A DNA stretch of 38,987 nucleotides from a phage. The stretch is taken from sequence record PZ379547.1. One strand, 5' to 3'. Each line of letters opens with the position of its first letter. Position 1 is the first letter of the stretch. Both the position numbers and the translations under genes were made by a program. Below are positions 546 to 38,987 of the stretch, piece after piece. The notes under the pieces were generated by a model. It had not been told where the DNA came from. It made no database searches and saw only the letters and a program-made list of their open reading frames with translations.

Positions 546-580
546 CGCAATCATGGTAACGATTCATGAGCGGAAGACCT

Positions 581-619
581 AAGGTCAGTACGTGGATAAA
601 GACTCACTCTACTGACCTT
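581..619 (+). other. Stem-loop: perfect 10-bp inverted repeat (aaggtcagta / tactgacctt) with 19-nt loop, downstream of gene 19.5
   Basis: Inverted repeat read directly; no U-tract follows, so not a classic intrinsic terminator. Confidence 0.4.
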
Positions 620-674
620 AGCTACTGTAGTCAAGGACTTTAGGTAACACCTTAAGAGAAGCTCACTTAGGGTC

Positions 675-749
675 ATCCTACTTATTGGTCTATCCTAGTG
701 TCGCCTGACCTACGGTCCTTGACCTACAGTGGCTGTGGCCTACAGTAGT
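675..749 (+). repeat. Short direct-repeat array (CCTAC/CCTACRGT motifs, about 5-6 copies) on the right-end side of the predicted terminal repeat
   Basis: atCCTACttat, atCCTAGtgt, gaCCTACGGTcc, gaCCTACAGTgg, ggCCTACAGTag at irregular 14-17 bp spacing. Confidence 0.6.
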
Positions 750-784
750 GACGATGAGGTTTGGACCAAAAGTTTGAGACCACA

Positions 785-980
785 TCTCACACTTCAAGAA
801 CCTCAAGTCTCCCCATAGGCCCTCTTTAAGTCCAGACCAAAGGCCCTACCCCAGTCTATCATAAGGTCGTACCGATTGTCAAGACGTTAGGTCAACGATA
901 GGTCTAGGCTATGGCTTAGGGAAGGACGATAGGTAGGGACTATTGGTCTGCCTCTGAGTCCCTATCTGTATAGTGATATA
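785..980 (+). repeat. Predicted terminal-repeat region of the linear genome (single copy in this circularised representation)
   Basis: TCTCACACTTCAAGAACC...CCCCATAGG and ...GTCCCTATCTGT resemble the recalled T7 left-end sequence (TCTCACAGTG...CCCCCATAGG... and ...GTGTCCCTATCTGTTACAG); flanked by short-repeat arrays as in T7; boundaries are approximate. Confidence 0.4.
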
Positions 981-995
981 GTATAACATTACGTC

Positions 996-1096
996 CTACA
1001 CCTACAGTCTAACTAACCTACAGTCATTGACTCCTGCTGTACCTACAGTCACCGACCATCGGTAAAGCCATTACCTACAGTCAAAGACCTACAGTC
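996..1096 (+). repeat. Short direct-repeat array: five perfect CCTACAGTC copies (1001, 1017, 1042, 1074, 1088) on the left-end side of the predicted terminal repeat
   Basis: Exact 9-mer recurs 5 times at irregular spacing; analogous to the CCTAAAG-type arrays next to the T7 terminal repeat. Confidence 0.7.
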
Positions 1097-1349
1097 TAAC
1101 GACACAAAGCTATAGACTTAAGGTCTAATACATGTTAGTCAAAGACTATATCCTCTTAGTCACTATGGGGCCGACGATAGCTTAATCAATATTATTTAAG
1201 ATTACCTATTGACTACAGGTCCAGACTATGGCTTAATAGCTTCCGTCAACACGACACGGCAACAACCGGATAGTGAAGACGCCGGGTCATCCCGGTTAAG
1301 TAGACAGCCTGATAAGTCATACGAACAACAGGCAGATGACAGAAAGTAG

Positions 1350-1379
1350 TTGACAAGATGTACCGACTTAAAGTAGTAT
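1350..1379 (+). promoter_or_regulatory. Candidate host sigma70 early promoter (T7 A2-like)
   Basis: TTGACA (1350-1355), 18-nt spacer, TAGTAT (1374-1379), followed by gtaccaca as recalled downstream of the T7 A2 -10; lies between the predicted genome end and the first early gene. Confidence 0.4.
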
Positions 1380-1503
1380 GTACCACATCAACACGAAACA
1401 ACGGTGACGACCAACACTGAAACGGTCTACCTGAAGTCCTCTGACTGAAGGGAATGCTCTTTAACAATCTGGATAAACTCTTAATGTGCGCCGATAGCGA
1501 CTA

Positions 1504-1900: not shown

Positions 1901-2407
1901 ATGGAACGTAATGCTAACGCATACTATGAGCTGCTGGCTGCAACCGTTGAGGCATTTATCGAGCGTATTCAGTACGACCACCTGACTCAAGATGACGACT
2001 ACAGCGATGCGCTGCATGAGGTCGTAGACGGTCAGGTTCCTCACTATTACCACGAGATTTTTACGGTGATGGCTGCTGATGGTATAGACAACGAGTTCGA
2101 AGACTCTGGGATGATACCTGAAACCAAGGACGTAACGCGTATCCTACAAGCTCGCATCTATGAGGCACTTTATAACGACGTGTCTAATAGCTTGGATGTA
2201 GTCTGGTTTGAGGATGAAGAGGCAGACGAAGAGGATGAATATTGGGTAGTTGACGCTAAAACAGGCGCAATAATTGTGCAAGCTGTAGCTCTTGAGGTCG
2301 CTACTGCATGTGCCAAGGTTAACTATGCGGCAGGTCGCCACCTGAAGGTGGAAGACATCAATGATAACGTAGTGTTCGACCCTGCGGCTGAGGACTGCGA
2401 GCGATGA
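1901..2407 (+). CDS. ocr: Ocr-like DNA-mimic anti-restriction protein (T7 gene 0.3 homolog) with C-terminal extension, 168 aa
   Basis: [43 protein letters not shown] aligns with recalled T7 Ocr ([43 protein letters not shown]); acidic stretch; GAGAGGA SD 8 nt upstream of ATG. Confidence 0.85.
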
Positions 2408-3885: not shown

Positions 3886-6567
3886 ATGAGCGTCATCTCT
3901 ATTGACAAGCACGACTTCTCTGATGTGTCGAACGCCATTGAGCCGTTTAACCTGCTGGCTGACCACTACGGGCAAGACCTTGCAGTCAAACAGCTTCAGC
4001 TTGAGCATGAGGCATATACAGAAGGCGAGCGACGTTTCATCAAGAACCTTGAGCGGCAGACTGAGCGCGGGGAACTGGCAGACAATCAGGTCGCCAAGCC
4101 TTTGATGCAGACTCTGGTCCCTAAGATTGCGCAAGCCGTCAGGGAGTGGCACGAAGGCCTAGACGGGAAGCTGTCAACCTCGCGTCCTAGCGTAGCGTTC
4201 ACCATGTTGAGCACTGAAGAGAAGGCCGTAAAGGACCGCTCTATGCGCATCTCCTGTGAGTCCGCTGCGGTTATCATACTGAAGGTCGTACTCTCCAAGC
4301 TGGTCAAGCCTGAAGGGATACCGATTACACCGATGGCCTCCGCGATAGGTCGCACACTTGAGGACGAAATCCGCTTCGGTCGCATCCGTGACAAAGAGAA
4401 GGAGCACTTCAAGAAGGCGATAGCTGATAACCTGAACAAGCGAGCTGGGGCATCCTACAAGAAAGCCTACATGCAAGCGGTCGAGGCGTCCATGCTGGAG
4501 CAAGGCCAACTGGAAGATGCATGGGGTACTTGGAGTCCTACAGAGGCTGTACACGTTGGCATCAAGATGCTCGAGATTGTCATCCAGTCAACACAACTGG
4601 TCGAGCTTAAGCGGTACGGTGCTGGTAATGCAGCGGCTGACGTAGAGATGGTCCACCTGTCAGACTTCTGGGTCAAGAAGATGGCACAACGAGGATTCAG
4701 CCTTGCGGGTATCGCTCCAGTCTACCAGCCTTGCGTCGTTCCACCTAAGCCGTGGACTGGTGTCGTAGGTGGTGGGTACTGGGCCAAAGGTCGCAGACCG
4801 TTACCATTGATTCGCTTAGGGTCTAAGTCTGCGGTAGCACGTTATGAAGACGTATACATGCCTGAAGTCTATGACGCTGTGAACATCATTCAGAATACAC
4901 CTTGGAAAGTTAACAAGAAGGTATTGGACGTGGTGAACATGGTCGAGAAGCTGAACAACACGCCTATTAATGACATCCCTCAGATGGAACCGCTGAAGCC
5001 TGAGGACTATGCTGGTGAAACCGAGGAGGAACTCAAGGCATGGAAGAAGGCTGCTGCTGGTATCTATCGCCGCGAGAAGGCCAGACAGTCACGCAGATTG
5101 TCCATGAGTTTCATCGTATCACAGGCCAACAAGTTCTCACAGTTTAAGGCCATCTGGTTCCCGTACAACATGGATTGGCGAGGTCGTGTCTACGCTGTCC
5201 CGATGTTCAACCCTCAGGGTAACGACATGCAGAAGGGGCTCCTGACTCTGGCAGTCGGCAAGCCTATCGGGGCGGATGGTTTCAAATGGCTTAAAGTCCA
5301 CGGTGCAAACTGTGCGGGTGTCGATAAAGTCACCTTCGATGAGCGCATCAAGTGGGTGGAAGACAACCACGAAAACATCATGGCTGCTGCTAAGGCACCG
5401 ATGGATAGTATTGAGTGGTGGGGCAAGTTAGACTCTCCGTTCTGTTTCCTCGCGTTCTGCTTCGAGTATGCTGGCGTAATGCACCACGGCCTGTCTTACT
5501 CCTGCTCGCTGCCGATAGCGTTCGATGGGTCCTGCTCTGGTATTCAGCACTTCAGTGCGATGCTTCGTGACCACATCGGTGGACATGCAGTAAACCTGAC
5601 GCCATCCGGCATGGTACAAGACATCTACCGCATTGTGTCTGACCGCATTGAGGAGGAGCTTAAAGTCCTTCTGATTAACGGTACTGACAACGAGATGGTC
5701 ACTCACGAGGATAAGAAAACTGGTGAGATTACCGAACGTATCAAGCTGGGGACACGAGAGCTGGCCCGTCAGTGGCTGACATACGGTATGTCACGCAAGG
5801 TCACTAAGCGTTCAGTCATGACTCTGGCATACGGGTCGAAAGAGTACGGATTCGCAGACCAAGTTTACGAGGACATCGTGATGCCAGCGATTGACTCAGG
5901 GTCTGGCGCTATGTTCACTGAACCAAGCCAAGCGTCTCGCTTCATGGCAAAGATGATTTGGGAAGCTGTGAGTGTGACAGTAGTTGCTGCGGTTGACGCG
6001 ATGAAGTGGCTTCAAGGTGCTGCCAAGCTGCTGGCTGCTGAGGTGAAGGACAAGAAGACTGGGGAAATCCTGAAGCCTTGCCTTCCGGTACACTGGGTCA
6101 CACCTGATGGGTTCCCGGTCTGGCAGGAATACCGCAAGAAGGATAGCACTCGTCTGAACCTGATGTTCTTAGGGTCCTTCAACCTTCAACCTACGGTCAA
6201 CAAAGGTACGAAGAAAGAGCTGGACAAGCACAAGCAGGAGTCAGGCATTAGCCCTAACTTCGTCCACTCACAAGATGGTAGCCACCTGCGGAAGACTGTA
6301 GTCCACACTCACCGCAAGTATGGCGTGATGTCATTCGCAGTGATTCACGATAGCTTCGGGACCATCCCTGCTGACGCTGAGTATCTGTTCCGTGGTGTCC
6401 GTGAGACGATGGTCGAGACATACCGCGATAACGATGTGCTGCTTGACTTCTACGAGCAGTTTGAATACCAGCTTCATGAAAGCCAGCGCGACAAGTTGCC
6501 TGAGCTTCCGAAGAAAGGTAAACTGAATATCGAAGACATCTTGTCTTCAGACTTTGCATTCGCTTAA
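3886..6567 (+). CDS. gp1: Single-subunit DNA-directed RNA polymerase (T7 gene 1 homolog), 893 aa
   Basis: DGSCSGIQHFSAMLRD, RSVMTLAYGSKEYGF, VIHDSFGTIPADA and C-terminal ...SDFAFA match recalled T7 RNAP motifs. Confidence 0.97.
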   Translation: MSVISIDKHDFSDVSNAIEPFNLLADHYGQDLAVKQLQLEHEAYTEGERRFIKNLERQTERGELADNQVAKPLMQTLVPKIAQAVREWHEGLDGKLSTSRPSVAFTMLSTEEKAVKDRSMRISCESAAVIILKVVLSKLVKPEGIPITPMASAIGRTLEDEIRFGRIRDKEKEHFKKAIADNLNKRAGASYKKAYMQAVEASMLEQGQLEDAWGTWSPTEAVHVGIKMLEIVIQSTQLVELKRYGAGNAAADVEMVHLSDFWVKKMAQRGFSLAGIAPVYQPCVVPPKPWTGVVGGGYWAKGRRPLPLIRLGSKSAVARYEDVYMPEVYDAVNIIQNTPWKVNKKVLDVVNMVEKLNNTPINDIPQMEPLKPEDYAGETEEELKAWKKAAAGIYRREKARQSRRLSMSFIVSQANKFSQFKAIWFPYNMDWRGRVYAVPMFNPQGNDMQKGLLTLAVGKPIGADGFKWLKVHGANCAGVDKVTFDERIKWVEDNHENIMAAAKAPMDSIEWWGKLDSPFCFLAFCFEYAGVMHHGLSYSCSLPIAFDGSCSGIQHFSAMLRDHIGGHAVNLTPSGMVQDIYRIVSDRIEEELKVLLINGTDNEMVTHEDKKTGEITERIKLGTRELARQWLTYGMSRKVTKRSVMTLAYGSKEYGFADQVYEDIVMPAIDSGSGAMFTEPSQASRFMAKMIWEAVSVTVVAAVDAMKWLQGAAKLLAAEVKDKKTGEILKPCLPVHWVTPDGFPVWQEYRKKDSTRLNLMFLGSFNLQPTVNKGTKKELDKHKQESGISPNFVHSQDGSHLRKTVVHTHRKYGVMSFAVIHDSFGTIPADAEYLFRGVRETMVETYRDNDVLLDFYEQFEYQLHESQRDKLPELPKKGKLNIEDILSSDFAFA

Positions 6568-9804: not shown

Positions 9805-10497
9805 ATGGCTAAAGAGCAATTGAAGACTTTCACCACTCCGGTAGCTGGTATCGTTGAGCCTTACGCATGGCTGAACAAAGCAGACACCAAGTTTAACGAG
9901 CGTGGTGAGCATAAGGTTAACCTGACGTTCGACCTGAGCGACCAGAAGGTCCGTAAGATGATTGATGTCTTACAGAAGATTCACGACGATGCGTATGCGA
10001 AAGCACTCGCAGACCACGAGAAGAACCCACCTCAGGTTCAGCGTGGCAAGAAGCCTATTGAACCACGTGAAGGCGACATGCCGTGGATTGAGAATGGTGA
10101 CGGTACTGTTACCCTTAAGTTTAAATGCTTTGCGTCTTACCTGAAAGACGGCAAGTCCGAGCCTATCGTATTACGGTTCTACGACACCGATGCTAAACTC
10201 ATCCGTGACGTCCCGAATATCTGCGCTGGGTCTAAGATGAAGGTCAAGTTTAAAGTCCTGCCGTTCAAGTGGAACGCTGCGACTGGTGCAAGCGTTAAGC
10301 TCCAGCTTGAGTCCTGCCTTCTGGTAGAACTGAAGGAGTGGAAAGGCGATGGTGGTGATGGTGGCTGGGGTGATGATGAAGACCTTGGTACTGGCTACAA
10401 AGCGCCAACCGATGGTGACTTCGGTGACGATGACTTCGGTGACGATGGTTCCGAAGGTGGTGACGACTCCAACTCTGGTGGCGATTACGACTTCTAA
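9805..10497 (+). CDS. gp2.5: Single-stranded DNA-binding protein (T7 gene 2.5 homolog), 230 aa
   Basis: EPYAWLNK, NPPQVQRGKKPIEPREGDMPW, GASVKLQLESCLLVEL and acidic Gly/Asp tail ending in F match recalled T7 gp2.5. Confidence 0.95.
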   Translation: MAKEQLKTFTTPVAGIVEPYAWLNKADTKFNERGEHKVNLTFDLSDQKVRKMIDVLQKIHDDAYAKALADHEKNPPQVQRGKKPIEPREGDMPWIENGDGTVTLKFKCFASYLKDGKSEPIVLRFYDTDAKLIRDVPNICAGSKMKVKFKVLPFKWNAATGASVKLQLESCLLVELKEWKGDGGDGGWGDDEDLGTGYKAPTDGDFGDDDFGDDGSEGGDDSNSGGDYDF

Positions 10498-10946
10498 TGG
10501 CTACAATAGAAAGCCTCAAGCAGCGACTCAGGGTTTCGGGTAGCTGCTGGCTTTTCACTGGCTGCGTTAACAACAATGGCTACGGTCAGATTAGGCATAA
10601 TGGGAAAACCATGCTTGCCCATCGTGTAGCCTACGAGCTGACTACAGGTGAAGAACCAAATGGTGTTCTACTACACACTTGTGACACTCCACTATGTTGT
10701 AACCCTGAGCATCTAACTGTAGGAACCCAAATGGATAACCTTCAGGACATGCGTAACAAGGGGCGCGGTGTAAACCCTCCTCATGTTCCGGGAGAGAAGT
10801 GCGGTATGTCTAAACTTACTGATACTAAAGTCAAGGAAATTAGGTCTTCTGACCTTACCCAGCGACAGCTCGCCACAATCTACGGAGTGTCTCAGCCAAC
10901 AATAGGTAAGATACTAAGGAGAGAAACATGGCGACACGTAGTATAA
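10497..10946 (+). CDS. HNH homing endonuclease with C-terminal helix-turn-helix (149 aa)
   Basis: CWLFTGCVNNNGYGQIRHNGKTMLAHRVAYEL ... HTCDTPLCCNPEHL (HNH_3-type) plus ...LATIYGVSQPTIGKILR; inserted between SSB and endonuclease I. Confidence 0.85.
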   Translation: MATIESLKQRLRVSGSCWLFTGCVNNNGYGQIRHNGKTMLAHRVAYELTTGEEPNGVLLHTCDTPLCCNPEHLTVGTQMDNLQDMRNKGRGVNPPHVPGEKCGMSKLTDTKVKEIRSSDLTQRQLATIYGVSQPTIGKILRRETWRHVV

Positions 10947-36739: not shown

Positions 36740-37189
36740 ATGCTCGAATTTTTAAAGAGAGCGGCTCCGTGGTTACTTGCAGCAGTGATGTTTGCTGGTG
36801 GCTACCACACCGCTAACAATAAGTGGGAGGTTAAGGTCAATGCAGAATACACCTCGAATCTTAAGGCATCGGAAGATACAAGGCTTGCTGTCCAAGCTGA
36901 AGTCAACAAAGTGTCCAAACGGTTTCAGGACGAAATGTCCTCGCTGGAAGGCAGCACTGATAGGATTATTGCTGACCTTCAGTCTGACAATAAGCGGTTG
37001 CGCATCCGAGTCAAACCAACGAGTGGAACCACGCAAAGTGACGGTCGATGCTTCATTGATGGTTACGCCGAACTTGACGAACGAGATGCTAAACGTCTTA
37101 TCGCCATCGGAGTGAAAGGAGACAAGTGGATTAAGGCCCTTCAAGACACTGTGAGAGCCTTACAGCAAGAGAAGGAGGTGACGCATTGA
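36740..37189 (+). CDS. gp18.5: Rz-like i-spanin (T7 gene 18.5 homolog), 149 aa
   Basis: [13 protein letters not shown] (N-terminal TM), [49 protein letters not shown] match recalled T7 gp18.5. Confidence 0.88.
36840..37115 (+). CDS. gp18.7: Rz1-like o-spanin lipoprotein embedded in the +1 frame of gene 18.5 (T7 gene 18.7 homolog), about 91 aa
   Basis: [24 protein letters not shown] (signal plus lipobox) and C-terminal [15 protein letters not shown] resemble recalled T7 gp18.7; ATG 36840 with GGGAGG upstream. Confidence 0.7.
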   Translation: MQNTPRILRHRKIQGLLSKLKSTKCPNGFRTKCPRWKAALIGLLLTFSLTISGCASESNQRVEPRKVTVDASLMVTPNLTNEMLNVLSPSE

Positions 37190-38949
37190 GTAAAGACTTA
37201 GTGGCGCGTCAGGCGCTAATGACTGCACGTATGAAGTCAGACTTCGTGTTCTTCCTGTTCGTCCTGTGGAAAGCTCTGTCGCTCCCAGTCCCTACTCGCT
37301 GTCAGATTGACATGGCGAAGAAACTATCGGCTGGGGACAACAGGCGCTTCATCCTACAAGCGTTCCGTGGTATAGGGAAGTCCTTCATTACGTGTGCCTT
37401 CGTTGTCTGGAAGCTATGGAACAACCCAGACTTGAAGTTCATGATTGTGTCGGCCTCAAAGGAACGAGCCGATGCTAACTCCATCTTCATCAAGCGAATC
37501 ATCGACCTCATGCCTCAGCTTCAGGAACTCAAACCTAAGCAGGGTCAGCGAGATGCGGTTATCAGCTTCGACGTTGGACCGGCTAAGCCAGACCACTCAC
37601 CTTCGGTTAAGTCCGTTGGTATCACTGGTCAGTTGACTGGTAGTCGTGCTGACATCCTGATTGCCGATGACGTGGAGGTTCCGAACAACTCAGCGACTCA
37701 GGCTGCACGAGACCGTCTATCAGAGCTTGTGAAAGAGTTCGACGCTATCCTGAAGCCGGGAGGTACGATCATCTATCTGGGTACTCCTCAGAACGAGATG
37801 ACACTGTATCGTGAGCTGGAAGGTCGTGGGTACACCACTACTATCTGGCCCGCTCGTTATCCACGCGACAGGAAGGACTGGCAGTCTTACGGTGACCGTC
37901 TGGCACCGATGCTTCAGGCAGAGCTTGAAGAGGACCCTGAGTCCTTCTACTGGCGTCCGACTGATGAAGTACGCTTCGATGATACGGACCTGAAGGAGCG
38001 TGAGCTGTCCTACGGTAAAGCTGGCTTCGCTCTACAGTTCATGCTTAACCCGAACCTGAGTGATGCTGAGAAGTATCCTCTTAAGCTCCGTGACCTTATC
38101 GTAGCCGACTTGGACCCAGCGTCCAGCCCAATGGTCTACCAATGGTTGCCAAACCCTCAGAACAAGCGTGAGGACGTTCCTAACGTGGGACTCATGGGTG
38201 ACTCGTACCACACGTATCAGACTGTAGGTTCTGCCTTCAGCTCATACACCCAGAAGATTCTGGTCATTGACCCTAGTGGTCGTGGTAAGGATGAAACTGG
38301 CTATGCGGTACTGTACCAGCTCAACGGCTACATCTTCGCTATGGAAGTTGGTGGTATGCGTGGTGGCTATGAAGACTCTACGCTGGAAGCATTGGCTAAG
38401 ATTGGTCGTAAGTGGAAGGTCAACGAATACGTCATTGAGGGTAACTTCGGCGATGGTATGTACCTTGAGCTATTCAAGCCTGTAGCGGCCCGTATTCATC
38501 CTGCTGCTGTAACTGAAGTGAAGAGTAAGGGTCAGAAGGAACTCCGCATCTGTGACGTTCTGGAGCCTATCATGGGGTCTCACCGACTTATCGTTAACGC
38601 TGCTGCTATCGTCCAAGACTACCAGACAGCCTCTGACAAGGATGGCGTGCGTAACCCTATCTACTCTCTCTTCTATCAGATGACCCGTATCTCTCGTGAA
38701 CGTGGAGCCTTGGCACACGATGACCGACTTGATGCGCTGGCTATCGGTGTACAGTTCTTCGTTGAGTCTATGGCGAAGGATGCCAACAAAGGCGAACGTG
38801 AAGTCACTGAGGAGTGGCTGGAGGAACAGATGGAGAACCCACGGAAAGGCTTCGAGTCCATCCACACTGAGTTCTGGGACAATGGGGTCCGGGTAACTCA
38901 CGATACTGACGACGAGCTTGGACTAGGGTCCTACGTTACGTTCCACTAG
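37186..38949 (+). CDS. gp19: Terminase large subunit (T7 gene 19 homolog), 587 aa, probable TTG start
   Basis: [111 protein letters not shown] match recalled T7 gp19; AAGGAGG 8 nt before TTG 37186. Confidence 0.96.
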
Positions 38950-38987
38950 CTGAATGAATAACTATAGGCGAAAACTGAATTAATAAG
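38861..38987 (+). repeat. Window-end duplication, copy 2 (identical to 1-127)
   Basis: Exact identity with window start, read directly. Confidence 0.95.

Follow-up and report, generated by a model that had tools for sequence, protein, structure and literature searches.

A probable T7-type concatemer junction with a predicted 179-bp terminal repeat and flanking CCTACAG arrays in a K1F-like phage

Results

We analysed a stretch of phage DNA of 38,987 nucleotides (hereafter the window) and found that its positions 560-1260 very probably represent a concatemer junction, visible because the assembly closed a linear genome into a circle and collapsed the two copies of its direct terminal repeat. 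By homology to the ends of related phages, we predict a direct terminal repeat of 179 bp at 785-963 (+ strand), which would be present only once in the window because the assembly collapsed the two copies. The predicted repeat is bracketed by two arrays of a short CCTACAG unit. A junction of this kind is an ordinary, already documented feature of Kayfunavirus and is not new for the K1F group. Two small comparative points seem to us worth recording: the heptamers to the left and right of the repeat match within each lineage, and the motif that follows the repeat has the variant form ATCTGTA.

The window begins and ends with the same 127 nt (1-127 and 38861-38987). It is thus a circularly closed assembly of 38,860 unique bases, and the identity is an overlap left by the circularising assembly. 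Because of this overlap, the last 69 nt of gene 19 are also found at 1-69, with the stop codon at 67-69. Gene 19 itself, encoding the large terminase subunit, lies at 37186-38949 (+ strand; Pfam Terminase-T7_RNaseH-like, E 6e-38), and its product is 80% identical to gp19 of phage CR8 and 64% identical to T7 gp19. Gene 0.3, which encodes an ocr-like anti-restriction protein and is the first recognisable early gene of the left end, lies at 1901-2407 (+ strand; Pfam ocr, E 7e-29). The junction is the meeting point of these two genome ends, gene 19 marking the right end and gene 0.3 the left. A Pfam search further revealed that the window encodes T7-type machinery, comprising an RNA polymerase (3886-6567), endonuclease I and a primase-helicase in addition to the large terminase. 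An open reading frame with an HNH endonuclease domain (Pfam HNH_3; 10497-10946) lies directly upstream of the endonuclease I gene and overlaps it; this is probably a homing endonuclease insertion.

Region 500-1600 matched 388 phage records, mostly K1F-group coliphages. The best matches, at 87-97.5% identity over the junction region alone rather than the whole genome, were Kayfunavirus records, and two of them, Kayfunavirus LI10P1 (97.5%) and Escherichia phage PSK1 (96.8%), are nearer to the window than K1F is. Judged by these matches and by the encoded machinery, the source phage is predicted to be a Kayfunavirus, a K1F-like relative of T7.

The left end of the genome was placed by homology. 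The records of K1F (NC_007456), YZ1, Penshu1, SH3 and SH4 all start at the base homologous to position 785 (TCTCAC...), the KM02 record starts one base away from it, and those of Emlis and Midid, which are in reverse orientation, end at it. In seven IMG/VR Kayfunavirus contigs the left end falls within the first three contig bases, and position 785 aligns with base 1 of T7 and T3 as well. The left cut site is abutted by a block, GATGAG.TTTGGACCAAAAGTTTGAGACCACA, that is nearly invariant among relatives.

For the right end of the repeat, we compared records in which its extent could be read (a slash marks the boundary here and below). In Penshu1 (179 bp), Emlis (179 bp, repeated exactly at both record ends) and SH4 (191 bp), the repeat ends in ...GAGTCYCT, directly before ATCTGTAT. 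The K1F record carries the repeat at both ends with a length of 178 bp, ending one base earlier, and the literature quotes 179 bp for it (PMC4925675). SH3, with a repeat of 183/184 bp that ends 4 nt past the motif boundary, is the exception among the relatives. The published boundaries of relatives, then, scatter by a few bases (178 or 179 in K1F, plus 4 nt in SH3). Outside the genus as well as in K1F, the exact repeat of the record ends within 1 nt of ...CT/ATCTGT, as seen in T7, T3, EamP-L1 and FE44. Some of these ends have been characterised by other means: the Penshu1 repeat (1-179) was predicted with PhageTerm (PMC6753287), and for SH3, SH4 and SH5, run-off sequencing on virion DNA located the ends and gave repeats of 183-190 bp (PMC4925675). 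One SH3 primer from the latter study matches window positions 842-861.

In the window, the same boundary, GAGTCCCT/ATCTGTAT, is found at 963/964. Since the mapped ends of relatives are homologous to 785 and 963/964, the repeat is predicted to occupy 785-963, and with its end at 963, positions 964-980 become unique left-end sequence. An earlier note on this DNA had proposed a T7-like terminal repeat at 785-980 that marks the physical genome ends between short-repeat arrays. Homology to relatives with determined ends supports this proposal and its left edge; the right edge did not hold, as the boundaries of relatives place it 17 nt short of 980. That both edges resemble those of T7, as also suggested in the earlier note, was borne out by alignment: T7 1-38 aligns with window 785-822 (TCTCAC...CCCCATAGG), and GTCCCTATCTGT is identical in the two phages (window 958-969, T7 153-164). 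Virion DNA is accordingly predicted to start at 785 (5'-TCTCACAC...) and to end with a second copy of 785-963 (...GAGTCCCT), for a virion genome of about 39,039 bp. Members of the genus show almost no variation in the blocks that flank the two cut sites.

Two deposited records have an unusual arrangement of this region. Providencia phage EPr2 (OM256482.1) and PP328844.1 carry the terminal repeat region four times, and the EPr2 annotation places repeats at both 1-179 and 501-679. This fourfold presence looks like an assembly artefact at the junction.

The array to the right of the repeat (995-1096, + strand), an analogue of the SRR, consists of CCTACAC at 995 followed by five perfect copies of (A)CCTACAGTC, with the nonamers starting at 1001, 1017, 1042, 1074 and 1088. 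Across the whole window CCTACAGTC occurs nine times against 0.49 expected, a count that was reached in none of 100 shuffles. The left array (677-745, + strand), an analogue of the SRL, contains CCTAC at 677, 709, 723 and 739 and CCTAG at 694; two of the four CCTAC copies, at 723 and 739, extend to CCTACAG. When the + strand of the 38.9-kb genome was searched for at least three CCTAC within 75 nt, only the two junction arrays were found, and none of 100 first-order Markov simulations produced a maximum of four or more. An unbiased k-mer scan of 560-1260 returned (A)CCTACAGT(C) as the most over-represented word. All unit copies at the junction are on the + strand. Their spacing is irregular (16, 25, 32 and 14 nt in the right array), and the arrays are dispersed repeats, not strict tandem repeats; because of the irregular spacing, Tandem Repeats Finder calls neither of them. 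We found no unit copies inside the terminal repeat of the window, and a motif search of 560-1260 for CCTAAAG was negative. Thus, the five perfect copies at 1001-1096 and the degenerate CCTAC array to the left, both described in the earlier note, proved real by count and by density, and its suggestion that this phage uses a repeat unit unlike that of T7 was also correct: the unit is CCTACAG(TC), and this is a property of the genus and one instance of a wider pattern among lineages.

Both arrays are conserved among relatives. The left array is nearly identical in K1F and in five of six other aligned relatives, and Cronobacter phage CtuP_B1 differs in the left part of it. We extracted 26 distinct Kayfunavirus right arrays, comprising 118 units, in which the core A-CCTACAG-T-C is kept and the neighbouring positions are degenerate. 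The heptamer is preceded by A in 92% of units and followed by T in 97% and then by C in 84%, and each position of the 10-nt core is conserved at 84-100%. Copy number in these right arrays ranges from 2 to 7, whole units having been gained or lost between close relatives, and CCATARGTC variants occur. The unit spacings fall mainly at 14-16 and 25-32 nt, suggesting an underlying period of about 15 nt. A scan of IMG/VR for pairs of CCTACAGTC gave 60 matches, of which 21 were Kayfunavirus-like, one was CR8 and 38 were neither. The majority of these 38 appear to have matched by chance, although the short fragments L046 and L064 do carry 5-7 copies of CCTACAGTC.

We identified other lineages by scanning viral contigs for the shared boundary TGTGTCCCTATCTGT. 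The heptamer flanking the repeat is CCTAAAG in T7 and T3, CCTACAG in Kayfunavirus and CR8, ACCTGAG in Klebsiella Przondovirus (for example IME205), CCTAATG in Erwinia phage EamP-L1 and Elunavirus, and CCTTATG in FE44 and Berlinvirus-like relatives. Within each of six lineages, the left and right flanks of the repeat carry the same heptamer, which is almost absent from the rest of the DNA that was compared.

Direct comparison with K1F revealed close agreement at the junction. The first base of the genome and its first 7 nt are alike, the block to the left of the cut site (...TTTGGACCAAAAGTTTGAGACCACA/) is identical, and the right boundary GAGTCYCT/ATCTGTAT is common to both phages, as are the repeat length (179 bp, or 178 in the K1F record), the left array and the presence of CCTACAGTC units to the right. 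The repeats differ by point substitutions, and the right array of the window consists of five perfect nonamers, without the extra CCATARGTC-type units that K1F has directly after ATCTGTAT.

T7 and the window have in common the order gene 19, phiOR, gene 19.5, left array, repeat, ATCTGT, right array, (phiOL), A promoters and gene 0.3. Both genomes start with TCTCAC, both repeats end in ...GTCCCT/ATCTGT, and both are flanked on each side by short repeats on one strand. The earlier note had described such a layout for T7, and we confirmed it in the T7 record, where CCTAAAG-type units lie 78-157 nt to the left and 15-172 nt to the right of the repeat. The CCTACAG arrays of the window (677-745 and 995-1096) are the counterparts of these T7 arrays. 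They differ in the unit (CCTACAG(TC) versus CCTAAAG), in basic spacing (about 15 nt and irregular versus 13 nt), in the number of right-hand copies (5-6 versus about 12) and in copies inside the repeat, of which the window has none and T7 has three. The motif after the repeat is ATCTGTA in the window and ATCTGTT in T7, and the repeats themselves, 179 bp and 160 bp, have interiors that are largely unalignable. Every testable feature of short direct terminal repeat ends of the T7 type was found in the window, the CCTAAAG unit being the sole array feature that was missing.

CR8, a Caroctavirus, resembles the window in a different respect. In both, the ACCTACAGTC unit lies to the right of ...GTCCCT/ATCTGTA, and the CR8 record itself annotates '(acctacagtcaac)3'. 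While the large terminases are 80% identical, the gp18 proteins are only 45% identical. The interior of the CR8 repeat is unrelated to that of the window and carries a 21-bp tandem array. In the deposited record (HG818824.1), the annotated repeat (1-189) ends inside this tandem array, and the conserved ...GTCCCT/ATCTGT boundary lies at 322. A CR8 repeat deposited too short, or a mis-assembled tandem array, could account for this.

Directly after the repeat of the window stands ATCTGTA (964-970, + strand), a candidate class II-type pause or termination motif for the phage RNA polymerase. Its first six bases match the class II pause signal of T7 RNA polymerase at the concatemer junction. ATCTGTA was invariant in all Kayfunavirus sequences examined, among them K1F, SH3, SH4, Penshu1 and 18 IMG/VR loci with the boundary motif, and it is also found in CR8. 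At the matching position T7 and T3 have ATCTGTT, with T instead of A as the seventh base. With T7 polymerase, class II termination is reportedly lost upon any base change (bioRxiv 10.1101/2021.01.11.426313). Given this seventh base, pausing by the polymerase of our phage is an assumption.

Several further elements surround the junction. A phage RNA polymerase promoter pointing rightward to the junction (184-206, + strand; predicted +1 at G201) matches the window's own promoter consensus cTaAACTATCACTATAGGga, which is seen at at least ten sites. It is placed as phiOR is in T7 and T3, between genes 19 and 19.5, and a terminator scan found no intrinsic terminator between it and the junction. The gene 19.5-like open reading frame (387-545, + strand; 52 aa) is 33% identical to T7 gp19.5 across 33 aa (pairwise E 2e-5) and is annotated as a CDS at the matching place in relatives. 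Just after it, centred 185 nt to the left of the terminal repeat, lies an inverted repeat with perfect 12-bp arms and a 19-nt loop (579-621). The arms are conserved in eight genomes, the loop has two alleles, and the predicted RNA fold has a free energy of -26.3 kcal/mol (z = -3.2). T7 has an imperfect palindrome about 190 nt to the left of its terminal repeat. The 579-621 hairpin, which lies at a similar distance from the repeat, may correspond to the 'hairpin end' intermediate that Chung, Nardone and Hinkle (1990) reportedly observed in T7.

Within the terminal repeat, we found a leftward sigma-70-like promoter (853-882, - strand) composed of TTGACA, an 18-nt spacer and a TG-extended TAGACT, with 10 of 12 consensus matches. 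A leftward A0 promoter is annotated inside the terminal repeat of T3, and on the basis of its consensus match the window's element is a possible A0 analogue. Most relatives have TTGACC at the -35 position of the matching promoter. To the right of the junction, a degenerate phage-promoter-like site (1151-1173, + strand) contains CACTATGGG at 1161-1169, one mismatch from the promoter core. This site is poorly conserved among relatives and is possibly, on weak grounds, a remnant of phiOL. The early promoter region for host polymerase (1206-1379, + strand) comprises an A1-like element at about 1206-1234 and an A2/A3-like element at 1350-1379, where a promoter scan detected TTGACA-18-TAGTAT; alignment with T7 470-880 and T3 425-800 revealed invariant blocks in this region.

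Between the early promoters and the ocr-like gene lies a conserved open reading frame of 84 aa (1563-1817) that is annotated in all relatives and gave no Pfam match. An Rfam search of 1-2500 gave no match, even at E up to 1. Related GenBank records carry many 'hypothetical proteins' of 25-70 aa, on both strands, over the arrays and the repeat (window 552-1470). Variation over these positions has an indel-rich, non-coding pattern, and these short open reading frame calls are therefore probably spurious.

Discussion

Much of what these elements may do can be framed by T7. There, the complex of phage RNA polymerase and lysozyme pauses at the junction, interacts with gp18 and gp19 and starts maturation (PMC3276506). 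It is for T7 alone that maturation is known to require this pause (PMC3276506; bioRxiv 10.1101/2021.01.11.426313). Models for duplication of the T7 repeat invoke nicking, with synthesis that proceeds by strand displacement or is started by primase; a hairpin intermediate has been seen in T7 (PMC4281155). By analogy, replication of the phage studied here would yield head-to-tail concatemers in which one repeat copy is shared at each junction. Late transcription by the phage RNA polymerase would then run from the phiOR-like promoter at 184-206 through gene 19.5 and into the repeat, and the polymerase would pause at ATCTGTA (964-970), directly after it. The paused polymerase-lysozyme complex might recruit the terminase (gp18/gp19) and the prohead, the junction would be cut, and DNA synthesis would duplicate the repeat, leaving a copy at both ends of each packaged genome. 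We infer all of these steps in this phage from T7; what the sequence comparison shows directly is the homology of the ends, the boundary motif, and the existence, conservation and strand bias of the arrays.

Insertion mapping in T7 indicates which parts of the genome ends matter. Most sites there are non-essential, with the exception of positions 142 and 162, located where the left repeat ends on its right side (PMC11482910). In agreement with this, the boundary between the repeat and ATCTGT is the best-conserved element in the sequences that we compared.

The same mapping bears on the arrays. A role of the arrays in concatemer processing, as the earlier note presented it, is an assumption and not an established fact, and because most insertion sites at the T7 genome ends are non-essential (PMC11482910), a required role is not supported, and these data speak against any single site being indispensable. 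A search of the literature on T7 short-repeat arrays, by name or by CCTAAAG, yielded nothing useful. We also considered the GTC that closes each unit as a possible primase recognition site, but CAGTC is not known to be among the preferred T7 primase sites. Most likely, the arrays would serve as redundant, lineage-specific sites for protein recognition or for DNA architecture that help to position the maturation complex.

A more specific proposal, which we put forward tentatively, is that the arrays are putative binding sites of gp18, the small terminase, which co-evolve with it and set the packaging specificity of each lineage, much as small-terminase sites occur in repeated form beside the cos or pac cleavage sites of other phages. 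Each lineage has its own flanking heptamer, which matches on both sides of the repeat, every copy is on one strand, and a conserved core is separated by variable spacers, all of which speaks for this proposal. Furthermore, T7 and T3, which have a common unit, have gp18 proteins that are 92% identical, whereas phages with other units are at 31-76%. However, the window and CR8 have a common unit and yet their gp18 proteins have only the 45% identity noted above. The relation of gp18 and gp19 identity to unit type, although consistent with co-variation, is inseparable from plain phylogeny, and most sites near the ends of T7 withstand insertions (PMC11482910).

The five units (CCTAAAG, CCTACAG, CCTGAG, CCTAATG and CCTTATG) may alternatively be viewed as a lineage-specific 'address' that is read by gp18 or by a complex of polymerase and terminase, with selection keeping both sides identical, so that a change of unit would help to make co-infecting T7-like phages incompatible in packaging. 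We consider this extended proposal unlikely.

It is similarly doubtful that the arrays lack a sequence-specific function and arose through slippage or unequal recombination, with gene conversion between the two sides of the junction, only about 250 bp apart in a concatemer, keeping them homogeneous. In favour of this reading, copy number (2-7) and spacers vary freely among close relatives, and the T7 genome ends tolerate insertions (PMC11482910). But arrays of the CCTNNNG type persist at both places in six lineages even though the unit changes, every position of the 10-nt core is 84-100% conserved against degenerate flanks, and the strand bias is strict. An absence of function fits these three observations poorly. 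Finally, it is very improbable that the virion ends lie elsewhere than at 785 and 963 (through headful packaging, permuted ends or a shifted cut) and that the region is a relic of a T7-type junction, given that the large terminase is of the T7 type, the junction is 97.5% identical to deposited Kayfunaviruses, the blocks flanking the cut sites hardly vary within the genus, and several relatives that were characterised independently have their ends at the corresponding positions.

Two comparative rules emerge from this work: in each of six lineages a matching, lineage-specific heptamer flanks the repeat on either side, and in five genera no more than 1 nt separates the repeat end from ATCTGT. 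Both could guide the prediction of genome ends and experiments on packaging specificity. For annotation, the circularised contig can be opened at 785 as position 1 and a second copy of 785-963 appended at the right end, so that the opened genome with both repeat copies measures about 39,039 bp. The comparison also brought up two records named for other hosts: Acinetobacter phage vB_Aba_01KA (PV615262.1) and Enterococcus phage EFA-1 (MT350292.1) are about 92% identical to coliphage Kayfunaviruses over the region, and their host labels look doubtful.
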